DNA of 64,000 nucleotides from Candidatus Levyibacteriota bacterium (GTDB lineage: Bacteria; Patescibacteriota; Microgenomatia; Levybacterales; UBA12049): positions 405,171-469,170 of the forward strand of contig OY970292.1 in the NCBI GenBank assembly GCA_963716145.1, written 5' to 3'. Shown here in pieces: positions 1,132 through 60,540 of the stretch (position 1 is its first letter; each line of letters starts with the position of its first letter). The notes under the pieces were generated by a model. The model worked only from the letters and a program-made list of their open reading frames with translations, made no database searches and had not been told where the DNA came from. The translations under genes were made by a program, and so were the position numbers.

Positions 1132-2409
1132 CTAATTATCCAATACCTCAATTGCTTTTTCAAGTTGTGCGTCATGCGTCGGATTTTTTTCATCAATTTT
1201 TACCTCAACATCCGGCTTTAACCCTTCTCCGTTTTTTCCGTTCCCGACCCAGGTCCCATTTGGAGTCAGCCATTTTGCTATTGTGACATGAAGTCCTGCT
1301 CCGCCTCCCAAATCCTCTGCTTCCTGAATAATACCTTTACCAAATGACGACTCACCTACCAACGTAGCACGTTTGTGATCTCGCAGTCCTCCCGCGACAA
1401 TTTCTGAAGCTGATGCTGATCCCTTGTTGATAAGAACAACAACAGGCACATCATACAATAATCCTTTACCCGATACGGGAAATCCGGTTCTGTCACCGTT
1501 TTTGTCTTCCTGCATTACAGCGTTGCCGTCTTTTACAAATTCTGAAATAATATATACCGCGTCGTTCAAATAGCCACCCGGATTATTGCGAAGGTCAAAC
1601 ACAACCCCCTTTATATCTTTTTCTGTTTTCAGTCTCAAAGCCGCGTCACTTGATAGTTTCTGCCATTCCTCATGGGTTGTGTCTCCAAATTGAGAAAGCC
1701 TGATATAAATAATCTTGTCATTTGCTATTTTTGATGCAGTTGGTGACTTATTAACAGACTCAATGTCCTTTGCTTGCTTTGTATAACTTGTAAGACTTTT
1801 TACCGAAATAGTATCGCGGGTTATATTCACATCAACAGGCGGCTCTCCTTGCTTGCGAATGATAGCAAGTTTTACATTTGTTCCTTTGGGACCACGAATC
1901 TTTTCTACCGCCTGACTCAGGGTTCACCCGAAAGTCACTTGATCATTAACTTTCACAATCGTATCTCCAGCCTTAATTCCTGCTTTTTGTGCCGGCGAAC
2001 CATCAATTGGTGCAACTACAATTATCTGCTTCGATTTTAGTCCGAGCTCTGCCCCTATTCCCTCAAACTTACCGGCTAGTCCGTTTTTAAAATCATCATT
2101 CAGTTTTGGAGGTAGATAAACAGTGTATGGATCGTCAAGACTATCAACCATTCCGGATATAGCACCATTAAGAATTACCTTAGGATCGATTGCTTTTTTG
2201 TTGTAATAATTTTCCTCAAGCTTTGAAAGAACTGTCCAGAAAAGAGTAAAATCCATATGGGTAACAGATGGAGGCGGCTCTTTGCTCGAAACCTCAATAT
2301 GGGGTTTATAATTATGCAGATCAATATTTATTTTTGTCACGCCGATGACATAACCGATAAGGCCTGCGATAATAACTGCCAATATAATTCGTAATCTGGA
2401 TGGGTTCAT
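1132..2409 (-). CDS. ctpA: Carboxy-terminal processing (S41, tail-specific) peptidase with PDZ domain, interrupted by a single in-frame TGA at 1924-1926.
   Basis: Track ORFs 1132..1830 and 1924..2469 are in the same frame. The sequence GDTIVKVNDQVTFG-TGA-TLSQAVEKIRGPKGTNVKLAI is colinear with S41 peptidases. The start is chosen at MNPSRLRI (2409), giving a 4-nt overlap with the upstream gene. Confidence 0.75.
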
Positions 2410-3164
2410 ATGTGTAAAAATATTATTGATTTTGATTGCGCGTCTAAAAACACTTTCTTGCCTGTCCACTCGGTCAATTTCACCATATCTTGCTCAATAA
2501 TTTCTATGATAGGTGTTTGAAAATTTTTTTCAATTATGTGAGCTATGTCTTGATCTTTTATTTCGGTCCCCACTATTCCAATAACCCCTATTCCGATTCC
2601 TTTTAATAACATTTCGCGGGTAAAACTGCCTCCGATCACAATCTTTCCAATCGTTCGGGCATCAAGGTGGTACGCATCATTTGCTTCAAGCCTGAACAAT
2701 TCCCCTTCGCCTTCCCCCCCTACTGACTTGTTACCAATTACAGTATTCTTATCAGTATTTATAACGATTTCATTATTATTACACAATATAGCTTTACCTT
2801 CAACGGGTGAAATTATGTTTTCTACCTCAGCTGAAGCACTTGAATCTGGCTTGATTACCAGGTTACCGGTATCGCGCTCGTAACGAAGAACTGTTCCCGA
2901 TACACGGCTTCTTAATATTATGCTTTTTGTCCCAAATAAATTTTTTTTCAGGGCTATTATATCCCCTTCAATTACTCTATCGCCAGGATTTTTTTTCAAA
3001 ACTTTTCCTATTGCCGAACGCGAAATAGATAGGGCTTGGGGAATATTTATAATCTCCTCTTCATTAATTTTTTTGACCGCGATAACTTGACCAACTGCGA
3101 CCTGGTCGCCCTCTTGAATACTTGGGATAAAACCATCTGGGAGTGAGATAGGCAGAGAAGTCAT
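2406..3164 (-). CDS. Hypothetical protein (252 aa) with a lipoyl/biotinyl-like barrel at the N-terminus and a Gly-rich C-terminal half.
   Basis: Long ORF. It is directly preceded by an R1-family leader element, as rpsR and ssb are. No family was recognised. Confidence 0.5.
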   Translation of the reverse strand: MTSLPISLPDGFIPSIQEGDQVAVGQVIAVKKINEEEIINIPQALSISRSAIGKVLKKNPGDRVIEGDIIALKKNLFGTKSIILRSRVSGTVLRYERDTGNLVIKPDSSASAEVENIISPVEGKAILCNNNEIVINTDKNTVIGNKSVGGEGEGELFRLEANDAYHLDARTIGKIVIGGSFTREMLLKGIGIGVIGIVGTEIKDQDIAHIIEKNFQTPIIEIIEQDMVKLTEWTGKKVFLDAQSKSIIFLHI

Positions 3165-3256
3165 GAAAATTTCAAATAAGTACCAATTTCAAATATCCAA
3201 TTTCCAAAACCTTAATTTAACATTTGAAATTTGATATTAGAAATTTGAAATTAAAC
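3165..3256 (-). repeat. R1-family AT-rich dyad-symmetric element, copy a. It is a 5' leader/promoter-type repeat.
   Basis: Near-identical to 3500-3591, 4171-4247 and 58881-58966. Shared core: AATTTCAAATAAATACCAATTTCAAATATCCAATTTCTAATC ... GTAATTTGATATTAGAAATTTGAAATT. It ends at the start codon of the downstream minus-strand gene. Confidence 0.8.
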
Positions 3257-3499: not shown

Positions 3500-3591
3500 A
3501 TTTTATTAATTTCAAATAAATACCAATTTCAAATATCCAATTTCTAATCATTTTTGTAATTTGATATTAGAAATTTGAAATTTGATATTCC
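3500..3591 (-). repeat. R1-family element, copy b (upstream of rpsR).
   Basis: Sequence identity with the other R1 copies. Inverted repeat AATTTCTAAT / ATTAGAAATT. Confidence 0.8.
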
Positions 3592-4164
3592 CTAAAAGGG
3601 AATGTCGTCCGGCATTACTTCATCATCTTGTCCTGAGCCTGTCGAAGGATCACTTTTTTTCTCTGCAACCGGCGCTTCTTCCTCCGCTTTGGCTTCTGTT
3701 TTTGTACTTTTCTTCACTGCTTTTACGCTCTTTTCCTCGGTTGTTTCGGATTCCTGAGTCTCTTCTGCCTCGCCCGTCGAAGCTTTGTTCGTTGGCTGAG
3801 GTTCATCATGTGCGCTTGTTGATCCGGCTTCCTTATTATCAAGCAAGATCATATCGTTTATAATTACTTCTGTTGTTGATTTTTGCGCTCCATCCTGGCC
3901 GGTCCATGATCGGGTACTAAGTCGTCCCTCAACATACACCTTGCGTCCCTTAACCAGAAACTGACTACAAAGCTCTCCAAGCTTATTCCAGGCTATAATT
4001 CTATGAAAATCAACTTCTTCTCTTTTCTCACCTGAGTCGGTTGTCCAGTTCCTGTTGGTTGCTATGCTGAAACTGCAAACTGCATTTCCGTTTGGTGTGT
4101 AACGCAGCTCCGGATTCCTGGTCAAATTTCCGATTAATTGTACTTTATTTAAACTTCTAGCCAT
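3592..4164 (-). CDS. ssb: Single-stranded DNA-binding protein.
   Basis: OB-fold N-terminus (VQLIGNLTRNPELRYTPNG) and the acidic tail ...DDEVMPDDIPF. The start is set at MARSLNKV. Confidence 0.9.
   Translation of the reverse strand: MARSLNKVQLIGNLTRNPELRYTPNGNAVCSFSIATNRNWTTDSGEKREEVDFHRIIAWNKLGELCSQFLVKGRKVYVEGRLSTRSWTGQDGAQKSTTEVIINDMILLDNKEAGSTSAHDEPQPTNKASTGEAEETQESETTEEKSVKAVKKSTKTEAKAEEEAPVAEKKSDPSTGSGQDDEVMPDDIPF
3632..3649. repeat. GC-motif copy CCTGAGCCTGTCGAAGGA inside the ssb C-terminal linker.
   Basis: It encodes PSTGSG. The upstream flank CATCTT is shared with the intergenic copy at 62937. Confidence 0.7.
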
Positions 4165-4170
4165 AGTTTC

Positions 4171-4247
4171 TAATTTCAAATAAATACCAATTTCAAATAT
4201 CCAATTTCTAATCGCATTTGTAATTTGATATTAGAAATTTGAAATTT
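4171..4247 (-). repeat. R1-family element, copy c (upstream of ssb).
   Basis: Sequence identity with the other R1 copies. Confidence 0.8.
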
Positions 4248-4271
4248 CTTTTACTTCGTACGAAGTAAAAG
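4248..4271. repeat. Perfect 24-bp palindrome CTTTTACTTCGTACGAAGTAAAAG spanning the rpsF stop codon.
   Basis: All 12 base pairs are self-complementary. It lies at the rpsF/ssb junction and may be an intercistronic hairpin or processing site. Confidence 0.6.
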
Positions 4272-4577
4272 GTGTCTTATTACATTATCCTGTCTTGTTA
4301 TTCTCTGCTCAAAGTCTTTCGGAATTCCGCCTTTTCCACTTCCGCCTGCTTCAGGATCTGATTCAATTCCCAACATATAATAATGTCCTGATTCTTCGTG
4401 TTGAATTGCGTAAGCTAGAGGTTTTTGTCCCCAATCATCTTCTTTGGTTATTTTAACACCCCCGCCTTGACTCGGCGAGGCAGGTTTCAGCCAGTCTTTA
4501 ATTGTTGTAAATAATTTCTTACGGTCTGCTTCTTTCAAGGATGGCCTCAAAACCAATACCAATTCGTAAAGTCTCAT
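4251..4577 (-). CDS. rpsF: 30S ribosomal protein S6.
   Basis: MRLYELVLVLRPSL... is S6-like, in the conserved rpsF-ssb-rpsR order. Confidence 0.85.
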   Translation of the reverse strand: MRLYELVLVLRPSLKEADRKKLFTTIKDWLKPASPSQGGGVKITKEDDWGQKPLAYAIQHEESGHYYMLGIESDPEAGGSGKGGIPKDFEQRITRQDNVIRHLLLRTK

Positions 4578-4585
4578 AAACGTAA

Positions 4586-5230
4586 TTGTACCACACTCAA
4601 AAGCCTCATCTCAAGGGGGAAAATTCTTACTTGACTTGCAAAATTTTTAAGTTCTATAATTCAACTGTGGCACCAACGGAGACAGAAAGAAGACCTTCAT
4701 CAGCTCACTCACCCGATAGAGTATCAAAAACTCATCGTTCGCGCTCACATACTAGAACAGTAACCTCTAGACTGAGAGAGAGTGTCAGAACTCTGACTGC
4801 TGCTTTTAAACCCAAATCAAAACCTGAAACGGTTTTCATTCCCCCACTTACACCACCGGAATCGCTTGAAGACAAACCTCCCGAGACTGCATTAGATTTT
4901 TTACCTAGCCTGCCTAGGCGAGGTCTCTTACGAGACTTCACTGGCCTTGGATTAACTAAGGCTGAAATTACAGAGGCGCTTGATCCTCTTCTCCCAAGTT
5001 TTCGGGCGGCCAATCCCAATGTTAGAGACAGTAATCTCACCCCCTGGGCCGCACTTGCCGAAAGAGAATTGAGAGCCGCCCACAGAAAAAAATATGGAAT
5101 AGGAATAGCTGATCATGCAGATGAATTAGGATTAGTTACTCCAGAATTAATAGCAAGTGCTGGTAGCAACCCTAAGGAGCCTGCGCATTCTAAAAGAACA
5201 CTTAGAAAAAAACCATCTTTATTGGCCTAG
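4586..5230 (+). CDS. Hypothetical protein. Its N-terminal half is Ser/Thr/Arg/Pro-rich low complexity. The local GC is higher than in flanking genes.
   Basis: A 214-codon open frame fills the whole gap between rpsF and ychF. Its composition is atypical for this genome, and the DNA is rich in short hairpins. I could not confirm that it is coding. Confidence 0.3.
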   Translation: MYHTQKPHLKGENSYLTCKIFKFYNSTVAPTETERRPSSAHSPDRVSKTHRSRSHTRTVTSRLRESVRTLTAAFKPKSKPETVFIPPLTPPESLEDKPPETALDFLPSLPRRGLLRDFTGLGLTKAEITEALDPLLPSFRAANPNVRDSNLTPWAALAERELRAAHRKKYGIGIADHADELGLVTPELIASAGSNPKEPAHSKRTLRKKPSLLA

Positions 5231-5250: not shown

Positions 5251-6390
5251 TTAGCTTCCAATTTTGAATTCCACGACATCTCCATCTTTGACTATATATT
5301 CTTTTCCCTCAAGCCTTGCTTTTCCTTTTTCCCGAGCACCCTTCCACCCGCCTCGACTCGCCCCGGAGTCGGGCGAGGCGGGCCCATTATTCGCAACAAA
5401 GTCTTCAAAACCCACAACTTCTGCTTTTATGAATTTTTTTGTAAAGTCGGTGTGGATTTCCCCGGCTGCCTCCGGCGCGCTTGAACCATTTCTGATAGTC
5501 CATGCCCGCACTTCCTTCTCCCCTGCTGTGAGGAAGGAAATTAAGCCGAGAGTTTGATATGCTTTTTGTATTAATCTTTCTAATCCTGATTGGTCTAAAC
5601 CTAAATCTTTTAAATACTCCTTTTGCTCACCGCTTGATAACTCTGAAAGCTCTGACTCTATCTTGGCGCAAATAACTACCAACTTCTGACAACTAACTCC
5701 TAACGACTCACTAAACTTTTTTGTTACGTTTTCTATCTCAGACGGATTGTATTGATCTTCAGAAACATTGAGTACGACTATTTCAGGTTTAGCAGAAAGC
5801 AAAAAAAGCTCCCGGGACATTTCTCTCTCTTCATCGGTTAAAACAATATCCCTCGCTGGTGTTCCCTGCTCCAAACCAATCCTTAACTTTGCAAGCATTT
5901 CTTTTTTTAGAGGACTTTCTTGCTTCTTACTTCTTGATTCTTGATTCTGAACCGTTGCTAGGTCGGCCAAAATTAGCTCGGCATTAATCACTTCATAGTC
6001 AGATTTCGGATCAACTGCTCCTTCTTTGATGACATCAGCGTCTTCAAACGCGCGGACAACATGGGAAATTATTTTTGTTTCGCGGATGTGGGACAAGAAC
6101 TTGTTTCCAAGCCCTTCTCCCTCGCTCGCGCCTTTTACAAGGCCGGCAATGTCGTAAAACTCTACAGTCGCTGGTTTAATTGGCGGTAAACCAGACATTT
6201 TTTCCTCGTCCTTCGTAATTGCGGCGAGCGTAGCGAGCCGATTGTCAGGTACTGCTACAATCCCAACATTTGGCTCAATGGTCGCAAAAGGATAATTGGC
6301 AGCCAAAGCCTGCTGCTTCTTCAAAAGCGCATTAAACAACGTACTCTTGCCGACATTAGGGAGCCCTACTATACTGATGCTTAGGTTCAT
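5251..6390 (-). CDS. ychF: Ribosome-binding ATPase YchF (Obg-family GTPase with a TGS domain).
   Basis: G1 motif GLPNVGKSTLFNAL and a C-terminal TGS region ...LEGKEYIVKDGDVVEFK. It carries an in-frame 36-nt GC-rich palindromic insertion (PASPDSGASRGG). Confidence 0.9.
   Translation of the reverse strand: MNLSISIVGLPNVGKSTLFNALLKKQQALAANYPFATIEPNVGIVAVPDNRLATLAAITKDEEKMSGLPPIKPATVEFYDIAGLVKGASEGEGLGNKFLSHIRETKIISHVVRAFEDADVIKEGAVDPKSDYEVINAELILADLATVQNQESRSKKQESPLKKEMLAKLRIGLEQGTPARDIVLTDEEREMSRELFLLSAKPEIVVLNVSEDQYNPSEIENVTKKFSESLGVSCQKLVVICAKIESELSELSSGEQKEYLKDLGLDQSGLERLIQKAYQTLGLISFLTAGEKEVRAWTIRNGSSAPEAAGEIHTDFTKKFIKAEVVGFEDFVANNGPASPDSGASRGGWKGAREKGKARLEGKEYIVKDGDVVEFKIGS
5348..5383. 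repeat. 36-nt GC-rich imperfect palindrome inside the ychF coding sequence.
   Basis: CCCGCCTCGACTCGCCCCGGAGTCGGGCGAGGCGGG. It encodes about 12 extra residues relative to YchF homologs and keeps the frame. Confidence 0.7.
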
Positions 6391-53967: not shown

Positions 53968-54083
53968 TCTAATTTTCAGTTTTTAATTTAAAATTTGAAA
54001 TGAATATTTAATGTTTTAAATTTAAATTTTTAAACATTTTATACTTCAATGAAAATTGAAAATTTCAAATTGAAAATTGTTCT
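53968..54083 (-). repeat. R2-family AT-rich element, copy a (upstream of recR).
   Basis: The 51-nt block 53985-54035 is identical to 59358-59408. The tail TTCAATGAAAATTGAAAATTTCAAATTGAAAATT is conserved. Confidence 0.8.
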
Positions 54084-59340: not shown

Positions 59341-59448
59341 ATTAATTTTTAATTCTCAATTTAAAATTTGAAATGAATATTTAATGTTTTAAATTTAAAT
59401 TTTTAAACCTTTGGATTTCAATAAAAATTGAAAATTACAAATTGAAAA
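59341..59448 (-). repeat. R2-family element, copy b (upstream of the HIT gene).
   Basis: 51-nt identity with copy a, plus the conserved tail. Confidence 0.8.
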
Positions 59449-60354: not shown

Positions 60355-60540
60355 TAGGGTAAGTATACGCTAACAATTTTTAATTTTCAATTTTTAACTT
60401 GAAATGAAAGCTAAATGTTTTAAAATTTAATTTTGAACCTTGCCTGCCGGCAGGCAGGAATTCATTGAAAATTGTAAATTTTAAATTGAAAATTTTGAGT
60501 TGAACTATAGATTGACATGAACCCTTGACAAACATCCGTA
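60355..60540 (-). repeat. R2-family element, copy c (diverged). It carries an embedded GC palindrome GCCTGCCGGCAGGC at 60442-60455.
   Basis: Similar AT-rich blocks (TTGAAATGAAAGCTAAATGTTTTAAAATTTAATTTTGAAC; TTCATTGAAAATTGTAAATTTTAAATTGAAAATT). Confidence 0.6.

Follow-up and report, generated by a model that had tools for sequence, protein, structure and literature searches.

How does a GC-rich palindrome of 36 nt come to lie in frame inside a gene that is surrounded by AT-rich DNA? The question is raised by a stretch of 64,000 nt from contig OY970292.1 of a Candidatus Levyibacteriota bacterium (positions 405,171 to 469,170, here called the window), where the gene ychF, which encodes the ribosome-binding ATPase YchF, carries the insert CCCGCCTCGACTCGCCCCGGAGTCGGGCGAGGCGGG. 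The answer that we reach is that this palindrome is, with high probability, a translated and tolerated copy of a selfish GC-rich hairpin repeat, from which we infer that YchF gains nothing useful. The repeat family to which it is assigned, here called family 1, very probably consists of imperfect palindromic selfish repeats of 24-40 nt, whose copies are scattered over AT-rich genomes, in Patescibacteria as well as in several further phyla.

The palindrome occupies positions 5347..5382 of the window. A first-pass annotation, made from the letters alone, had recognized the 36-nt element but placed it one base too far, at 5348-5383. The plus strand shows the orientation of the family consensus, CCCGCCTCGACTCG...GCGAGGCGGG, and ychF (5251..6390) is read from the minus strand; its product has the Pfam domains PF01926 (MMR_HSR1) and PF06071 (YchF-GTPase_C), as taken from the record of the identical protein P0001. 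The outer arms, CCCGCCTCG and CGAGGCGGG, form a perfect inverted repeat of 9 bp and the inner pair GACTC/GAGTC is present, so that both stems proposed in the annotation were found, as was the contrast in composition: the palindrome has 83% G+C, against 39.4% for the window, and lies inside the longest of ten GC islands detected. Folded as single-stranded DNA it reaches -15.6 kcal/mol (z = -3.1 against shuffled sequence). When the window was searched for the 36-mer with up to three mismatches, no further copy was found, and none is expected by chance. The palindrome fails as an intrinsic terminator, lying as it does inside an open reading frame (ORF), about 100 nt ahead of the stop codon and without a T-run (the next bases are TGGAAGGGTGC when the coding strand is read and CCCATTATTCGC when the opposite strand is read). 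Rfam gave no family at the element, either at the gathering threshold or at a permissive E-value.

On the minus, coding, strand the palindrome is in frame and encodes the 12 residues PASPDSGASRGG between ..FVANN(G) and WKGAREKG, so that the peptide across the insert reads ..NNGPASPDSGASRGGWK... In an AlphaFold2 model of YchF these are residues 336-347, which form a loop between helices 328-333 and 348-354; the mean predicted local distance difference test (pLDDT) score of the model is 85, with about 68-73 in the blocks that contain the insert and above 90 in their surroundings. According to this model, the 12 extra residues occupy a surface loop.

To see what the locus looks like without the insert, consider the 120 best-scoring homologues of YchF, all of them Patescibacteria-like, which were aligned. 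The insert position is empty in about 111 of these, the nearest relatives P0003-P0011 included, in agreement with the annotation's claim of some 12 residues at a place where homologues have none. The empty proteins run from ..FVxNx straight into GWKG, and nine of the 120 carry something there. At the DNA level, the coding strand of the empty site reads AAT AAC GGA TGG (locus L003) or AAT AAT GGC TGG (L131), while the filled site of the window reads AAT AAT GGG [CCC GCC TCG CCC GAC TCC GGG GCG AGT CGA GGC GGG] TGG. What fills the same codon elsewhere varies. The ychF gene of L001, encoding P0002, has 35 of the 36 nt of the window element, with a single synonymous change in the loop; L005 has the arms of the window element and a different centre; in L002 the element is inverted, with the asymmetric 15-mer GCGAGTCGAGGCGGG on the opposite strand and the peptide GPASTRGESTRG; L004 and L006 share a related variant of 30 nt; and L130 has a third variant, CCTGCCCGCAATGCTACGCATAGCGTGGCAGGCGGG, its relative P0115 (92% identical) having no insert at all. 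The variants of L004, L006 and L130 have termini in common with the window element.

The filled sites do not follow descent. The carrier P0002 shares 90% of its residues with P0008, which has no insert, and only 81% with the window protein, and judged by such sequence identities the carriers are not sister lineages. Identities are here preferred over topology, because the tree of these proteins was made by plain neighbour-joining and has no support values. When the ychF genes of the window and L001 are compared, they are 72% identical at the DNA level, against 35 of 36 nt in the element, and at the codons of identical residues the same codon is used in 11 of 12 cases inside the element and in 131 of 292 outside it (Fisher p = 0.0013). 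The annotation had named, as an outcome that would speak against a mobile palindrome, an insertion conserved as protein in close relatives without palindromic DNA; what L001 shares is the DNA. Patchy presence, the reversed copy, the variants and the constraint on nucleotides together argue for repeated gain of a sequence-constrained element, rather than for a loop selected for its peptide, and suggest that the ychF loop was struck repeatedly and independently.

Three other explanations of the insert bear on these data. The first is that selection on the protein maintains the 12 residues as an adaptive loop extension of particular YchF lineages, with the palindromic DNA as a by-product. The frame is indeed kept, P0001 and P0002 have the same peptide, and a segment placed by the model on the protein surface could form an interaction site. 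On the other hand, rpsF, spacers and the genes of dozens of unrelated proteins have received the same DNA (see below), the reversed copy in L002 gives a different peptide, the carriers are not each other's sisters, and it is the nucleotides that are conserved. The explanation is largely refuted already, and we regard it as very unlikely.

The second is that an insert already old in this clade of YchF was excised precisely between flanking GGG triplets on many occasions, so that there were no repeated gains. Palindromes between short direct repeats are readily deleted. In accordance with this, every variant sits at exactly one codon and the junctions have the form GGG^...GGG^, a configuration from which easy deletion is expected. 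Many independent losses among the 120 homologues would, however, be needed; the opposite orientation in L002 and the presence of different families at the site are left unexplained; and 35 of 36 nt are identical although more than half of the synonymous codons differ. This history is therefore judged quite unlikely for the insert as a whole. The third is that the palindrome is an artefact of assembly or amplification, such as a fold-back chimera: the assemblies are metagenomic, and multiple-displacement amplification can create palindromes. Yet assemblies made independently, in different projects, have the insert at one and the same codon and differ within it by a single synonymous change, in-gene copies preserve the frame, and the element is foreign to its flanks rather than a fold-back of them, which makes an artefact extremely improbable.

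Other loops of YchF carry short recurrent inserts as well (VGGGDPHASL, LRSAQDDN, SVIPAQAGIHG, LDSRLRGN and EASAGQAGSGG), found in the homologues P0012, P0014, P0017, P0018, P0026, P0027, P0035, P0061, P0066, P0099, P0107 and P0116. Several further repeat families seem, from these sequences, to use the same permissive loops.

Copies of the element in genes and spacers

The selfish-repeat reading implies that the element should be met elsewhere, and a relative lies 860 bp from the ychF copy. The 24-nt element CCCGCCTTGACTCGGCGAGGCAGG, at 4461..4484 on the plus strand, is a short form of family 1 and is inserted in frame in rpsF, the gene for ribosomal protein S6 (4251..4577, minus strand), which is syntenic with the Ribosomal_S6 genes of L001 and L003. 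It equals the ychF element minus its central 12 nt, reads PASPSQGG on the coding strand and matches the ychF copy in orientation and frame; the 24-nt insertion is missing from the syntenic rpsF of both L001 and L003. The 64-kb window holds these two clear members of family 1 only. The other finding that the annotation had counted against itself, a palindrome unique in its genome with no other GC islands, is likewise not what is seen, given the relative in rpsF, the copies in other genomes and the spacer palindrome at 60442-60455.

These copies were sought in a scan of one genome per species with the pattern CCCGCCTYGACTC N(0-18) CGAGGCRGG, which gave at least 120 stretches. Among the matches listed there are family-1 copies, both within genes and in spacers, from more than 100 other genomes. 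Taxon labels are here those of the record titles only: the titles of 80 listed loci name 42 Patescibacteria from many classes, 12 metagenome-assembled genomes of Gammaproteobacteria and 8 Planctomycetota, and further labels are WOR-3, Omnitrophota, Elusimicrobia, Bacteroidota, Spirochaetia and one Bathyarchaeia. Several of the copies in Planctomycetota are on contigs of 80-440 kb, in genes such as that for a rhamnosidase of 1053 residues. The few matches in high-GC actinobacteria are probably due to chance. Lengths range, among the matches listed, from 23 to 40 nt, with conserved arms (CCCGCCTYGACTCG ... GCGAGGCRGG) and a variable centre, and the commonest variant is the exact 24-mer of rpsF, with at least 20 identical copies in other genomes. 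Viral contigs gave 3 matches in 2.9 million, so that phages are no obvious reservoir. No description of the DNA string, of the peptide, or of repetitive extragenic palindromes (REPs) in Patescibacteria was found in the literature.

What the element does inside genes follows from 112 copies taken from genomes with less than 55% G+C, where a copy is called deep when at least 40 codons of ORF lie on either side of it. About half of them (56 of 112 among the matches listed) are deep in ORFs. Among these matches, the length is divisible by three in 52 of the 56 deep copies and in 23 of the 56 others, and copies in non-coding DNA have lengths that are not limited to multiples of three. From lengths divisible by three, together with an open frame in nearly all in-gene copies, follows that the in-gene copies are translated. 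The orientation and frame of the window copy, giving PASP..S(Q/R)GG, recur in 26 of the 56 deep copies, and (T/A)RLDS.. is read in 12. Among the proteins hit are RecG, a ComM-like ATPase, PolA and 5'-3' exonuclease, TypA/BipA, RNase R, PheT (twice), TsaD, ThyA, a class I aminoacyl-tRNA synthetase, LigA and a Mur ligase, that is, the products of ordinary housekeeping genes. The bias in length indicates that in-gene copies are filtered by selection and that the survivors keep the frame. Such survivors would sit in permissive surface loops, as modelled for YchF alone.

The junctions tell how the element enters DNA. Locus L119 provides a filled and an empty site: a stretch of 36 nt, composed of AAACATTCCGG, GGTAGCTCAGCGGTA and GAGCGGTCGC in direct succession, is intact as the start of a tRNA-Asn gene, and in a second copy about 300 nt upstream the first boundary between these segments is occupied by a family-1 element of 38 nt and the second by the 20-nt palindrome CCTGCCTGCCGGCAGGCAGG. 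No target-site duplication is seen at either of these insertions, nor at the ychF and rpsF sites, where the point of insertion is ambiguous by at most 3 nt, due to runs of G. Across copies there is a purine at -1 and a pyrimidine at +1; among the matches listed, GG^ precedes the element in 27 of 113 cases and ^CC follows it in 21 of 113, each with 5.7 expected, which is a four- to five-fold enrichment. As far as these junctions go, insertion is that of a clean block, without target-site duplication and often beside GG. A regular target duplication was also considered and rejected: direct repeats flank 14 copies, with 6.6 expected, but their length and spacing are irregular and most are in AT-rich spacers with tandem repeats. 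An inverted duplication of the target was rejected too, since the complementarity of the flanks is no higher than in controls. A strand bias relative to GC skew was not significant. In other genomes, family-1 elements are often found within tandem repeats of GAAAATT type (L053, L067, L074, L085), which resemble the AT-rich spacer repeats of the window described below.

The distribution of copies also bears on a different explanation, according to which selection keeps the hairpin because it acts in cis, at the level of DNA or mRNA, for instance by causing a pause, marking a site of processing, stabilizing the mRNA or binding a conserved host protein. Such a function would fit with synonymous sites that are far more conserved in the element than elsewhere in ychF, with arms that are identical across distant genomes and with a fold that is more stable than that of shuffled sequence; it would fit also with the fixed position of hairpins 8-46 nt upstream of the start codons of the GIY-YIG nuclease genes discussed below, where a 5' stem-loop could matter. 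It fits badly with copies in spacers and in many genes that are not related to one another, at positions that do not correspond and with either orientation towards the gene, and with the absence of the hairpin from the nearest YchF relatives. The short form, moreover, retains two fixed non-Watson-Crick positions without compensatory change, and there is neither a T-run after the hairpin nor a match to an Rfam family. A selected cis-element is for these reasons considered unlikely, and the copies are taken to be those of a selfish repeat.

Nuclease genes, tRNA genes and a possible route of spread

The most likely route of movement would be break-dependent copying, or insertion catalysed in trans, and the sole candidate enzyme seen in these data is a family of small GIY-YIG nucleases encoded at tRNA genes, immediately downstream of long-form copies. 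The loci selected by the presence of the element contain eight small GIY-YIG genes (Pfam PF01541), seven of which start within about 180 nt downstream of a long-form element (38-40 nt); random placement in loci of 8 kb would give about 5%. A second set, of 80 metagenome loci, was chosen by similarity to the GIY-YIG protein. In these protein-selected loci, 33 of 73 GIY-YIG genes adjoin a tRNA gene on the same strand, often with the stop codon within the 5' end of the tRNA, and 24 of 74 GIY-YIG genes are preceded, within 100 nt, by a perfect hairpin rich in G+C, compared with 6 of 243 control windows that contain one. For the four closest GIY-YIG homologues, a family-1 element is found 12-24 nt upstream in all cases. 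The upstream hairpins sit in a partial duplicate of the 5' part of the tRNA, often right after the GG of the D-loop.

Several of these loci deserve description. GIY-YIG genes of about 80-100 residues at tRNA genes are present in L119 (60-560, minus strand), L118, L102, L039, L123, L043 and L132-L135, with the stop codon of the ORF inside the 5' end of the tRNA, and in GIY-YIG/tRNA loci the partial upstream duplicate of the tRNA 5' part is broken by one or two GC-rich palindromes. L073 (3500-4190) and L028 (minus strand, about 2720-3000) have intact tRNA genes together with partial pseudo-copies broken by palindromes of several families. In L147, L168 and L211 the 5' end of a 16S rRNA gene (AGAGTTTGATCCTGGCTCAG...GCATGCAAGT) is directly upstream of the GIY-YIG gene, at about 100 nt, from which the nuclease gene appears to lie inside 16S, near position 60-70.

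The joined flanks of the element match tRNA sequence in 11 of 111 element-selected copies, all of them long forms. The idea that the element is an intron-like insert of intact tRNA genes was rejected, since removal in silico never yields a complete tRNA; the tRNA-like flanks are thus fragments, which counts against a causal link between nuclease and hairpin.

The association between element and GIY-YIG gene is real, and it is an association only, a lead and not a proof. Either the nuclease mobilizes the hairpins, or both target, or accumulate in, the DNA of tRNA genes; the data may be read in both ways. To be specific about the former, small SLX1/YhbQ-like GIY-YIG nucleases, encoded in cassettes at tRNA genes and 16S rRNA genes, would either break the DNA or cleave cruciforms that extrude from it, and copying would then carry the GC hairpins to new sites, among them permissive loops of essential genes. 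That a nuclease drives a mobile system which spreads across bacterial phyla, with the palindromes as its non-autonomous partners, is possible, but we hold it to be rather doubtful. If true, the system would be a bacterial counterpart of mitochondrial GC clusters plus homing endonucleases, and in any case the link to tRNA-associated GIY-YIG cassettes offers a testable route to mechanism. When the window and the ychF loci were searched with a profile, no GIY-YIG gene came up. ARAGORN detected neither tRNA nor tmRNA genes anywhere in the 64 kb, where no Rfam family attained its gathering score either.

A number of observations weigh against the conclusion that the ychF palindrome is a selfish repeat, or against parts of it. 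No movement was observed, and no polymorphism for presence and absence within a species was found. The window has just two clear copies, with neither a GIY-YIG gene nor a tRNA gene, and only 7 of the approximately 113 listed copies adjoin a GIY-YIG gene. Some copies in tRNA fragments have no such gene near them, L073 and L028 being examples without a nuclease gene between the intact tRNA genes and the pseudo-copies, and the association may reflect shared safe havens or a common preference for tRNA-like DNA. Strong conservation of nucleotides could signal a function of the hairpin; in some YchF lineages, repeated loss of an ancient insert by slippage between flanking GGG triplets may have contributed; and some contigs labelled Gammaproteobacteria could be mis-binned.

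Other inserts and features of the window

The annotation had seen a second GC palindrome, GCCTGCCGGCAGGC at 60442-60455, which is present as described and is part of the 20-nt palindrome CTTGCCTGCCGGCAGGCAGG, located in an AT-rich spacer at 60439..60458 and assigned to no strand. The latter is a copy, with one mismatch, of the perfect 20-nt palindrome CCTGCCTGCCGGCAGGCAGG, which defines family 2 and has exact or near copies in L003, L004 (7 nt past the ychF stop codon), L014, L019, L050, L060, L114 and L119. The termini CCTGCC/GGCAGG of family 2 are common to family 1. By this sequence comparison, the palindrome at 60442-60455 is a member of a second widespread palindrome family, and since it recurs in other genomes, the picture drawn in the annotation, of GC-rich palindromic mini-elements that occupy genes and spacers alike, holds: there is the rpsF copy, there are the more than 100 genomes, and there is this second family.

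A motif in the single-stranded DNA-binding protein gene ssb had been named as a sibling of the palindromes, and here the claim stands in part. The C-terminal tail of SSB contains the insert KKSDPSTGSGQ (3627-3648, DNA CCTTCGACAGGCTCAGGACAAG), which is GC-rich and in frame. When compared with L001 and L003 it is present in the window only, and near copies of its DNA occur in L044, L061 and L087; it is thus a lineage-specific GC-rich insert with relatives elsewhere, but it is non-palindromic and belongs to a different family. S6 has, at about 4329-4355 of rpsF, a GC-rich insert of 9 residues (..DPEAGGSGKGG..) in common with L001 and absent from L003.

Between rpsF and ychF lies an ORF of 214 residues (4586-5230, plus strand), for which L001 and L003 have no counterpart of the same size or on the same strand. 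At 4909-4923 this ORF includes CCTGCCTAGGCGAGG, a short sequence that resembles a palindrome and has a left end like that of the family. AT-rich spacer repeats of the types AATTTCAAATATCCAATTTCTAAT and TTGAAAATTG recur between genes at 3185-3231, 3525-3589, 4195-4247, 53981-54038, 59346-59447 and 60375-60505. The gene of an S41 peptidase (about 1141-2409, minus strand) has a single in-frame TGA at 1924-1926, in the context VTFG*TLSQ; at exactly this place the Trp codon TGG is conserved in both syntenic relatives, L001 and L003. Apart from the TGA the gene is whole, with 77-79% identity to L001 and L003 and no gaps, and the remaining ORFs of the window are long under translation table 11. The TGA could be a nonsense mutation, a sequencing error or a site of local read-through.

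Comparison with known palindromic repeats

In-frame selfish palindromes in bacteria are textbook knowledge for Rickettsia only. Family 1 concerns a far shorter element (24-40 nt) in many housekeeping genes of Patescibacteria and several other phyla, as labelled, with some copies identical to the base. It accounts for recurrent odd peptides, such as PASPSQGG and similar ones, and for variation in length among conserved proteins of uncultivated bacteria, with consequences for alignments, phylogenies and structure prediction, and its inserts are natural markers of permissive loop sites in proteins.

The Rickettsia palindromic elements (RPEs; Ogata et al. 2000), reported from Rickettsia with lengths of about 100-150 bp, are described as inserted in frame in housekeeping genes and translated, in loops compatible with the fold, and also as non-coding copies, and RPE-4 and RPE-6, which are short, carry CGTC as a terminal tag (PMC10969869 and PMC3733652 for the insertions, PMC3733652 for the tag). 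As far as these descriptions of the RPEs go, family 1 resembles them in being in frame in functional protein genes as well as in non-coding DNA, and is set apart by its length of 24-40 nt, its occurrence in many phyla and its ends, CCCGCC/GGCGGG, without CGTC.

REPs tagged with GTAG or CGTC are imperfect palindromes of 20-40 bp with stems of 8-9 bp, which are met singly, as dimers or in clusters and now and then lie in frame within a gene; for the CGTC class no transposase of its own is known (PMC3733652). Family 1 is likewise an imperfect palindrome of 20-40 bp. It differs in having no terminal GTAG or CGTC, its flanks showing only the purine at -1, the pyrimidine at +1 and the enrichment of GG and CC; in having about half of its listed copies in ORFs; and in a sequence that is shared across phyla rather than specific for a species. 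Miniature inverted-repeat transposable elements, with terminal inverted repeats, 70-300 bp and a target-site duplication of fixed length, are longer than family 1, which has no duplication. Hairpins derived from IS200/IS605 (PATE-like) make no duplication, have a fixed tetra- or pentanucleotide target and show a strand bias. When family 1 is compared with these features, duplication is lacking, the preference for GG is the sole target signal, and there is no significant bias relative to GC skew.

Another case of hairpins inside genes is that of the 'byp' GC clusters in the mitochondria of Magnusiomyces (Lang et al. 2014), which the ribosome skips, so that the frame is dispensable (PMC8811140). 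According to what is reported there, byps are like family 1 in being short GC-rich hairpins within protein genes of an AT-rich genome. The 52 of 56 in-gene family-1 copies with lengths that are multiples of three, together with their open frame, point to ordinary translation, unlike the skipped byps.

Closest in behaviour to family 1, by analogy, are the GC clusters of fungal mitochondria. These are GC-rich palindromes in an AT-rich genome, mostly intergenic but, as in yeast var1, a ribosomal-protein gene, also in frame; their loops change faster than their arms, clusters merge, and they coexist with homing-endonuclease genes; and in Neurospora mitochondria GC-rich palindromes flank tRNA genes (PMC8811140). 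Family 1 shares the GC-rich palindrome in an AT-rich genome, the combination of intergenic copies with in-frame copies (in a ribosomal-protein gene), the nearness to tRNA genes, the variable loops, the merged elements and the endonuclease genes nearby. The differences are that its hosts are bacteria of several phyla, that there is no relation in sequence, that it lacks the terminal AG/TAG repeats which in the clusters are read as target duplications, and that the same 24-mer is found unchanged in genomes that are very far apart, in contrast to the rapid divergence of the mitochondrial clusters. To our knowledge, the mobility of these clusters is unexplained after 40 years, and family 1 would give them a bacterial parallel. 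The kind of element is thus already known from RPEs, REPs and GC clusters; what sets family 1 apart is its sharing across phyla, at times to the last base, and its lack of the tags, lengths and duplications by which those elements are defined.

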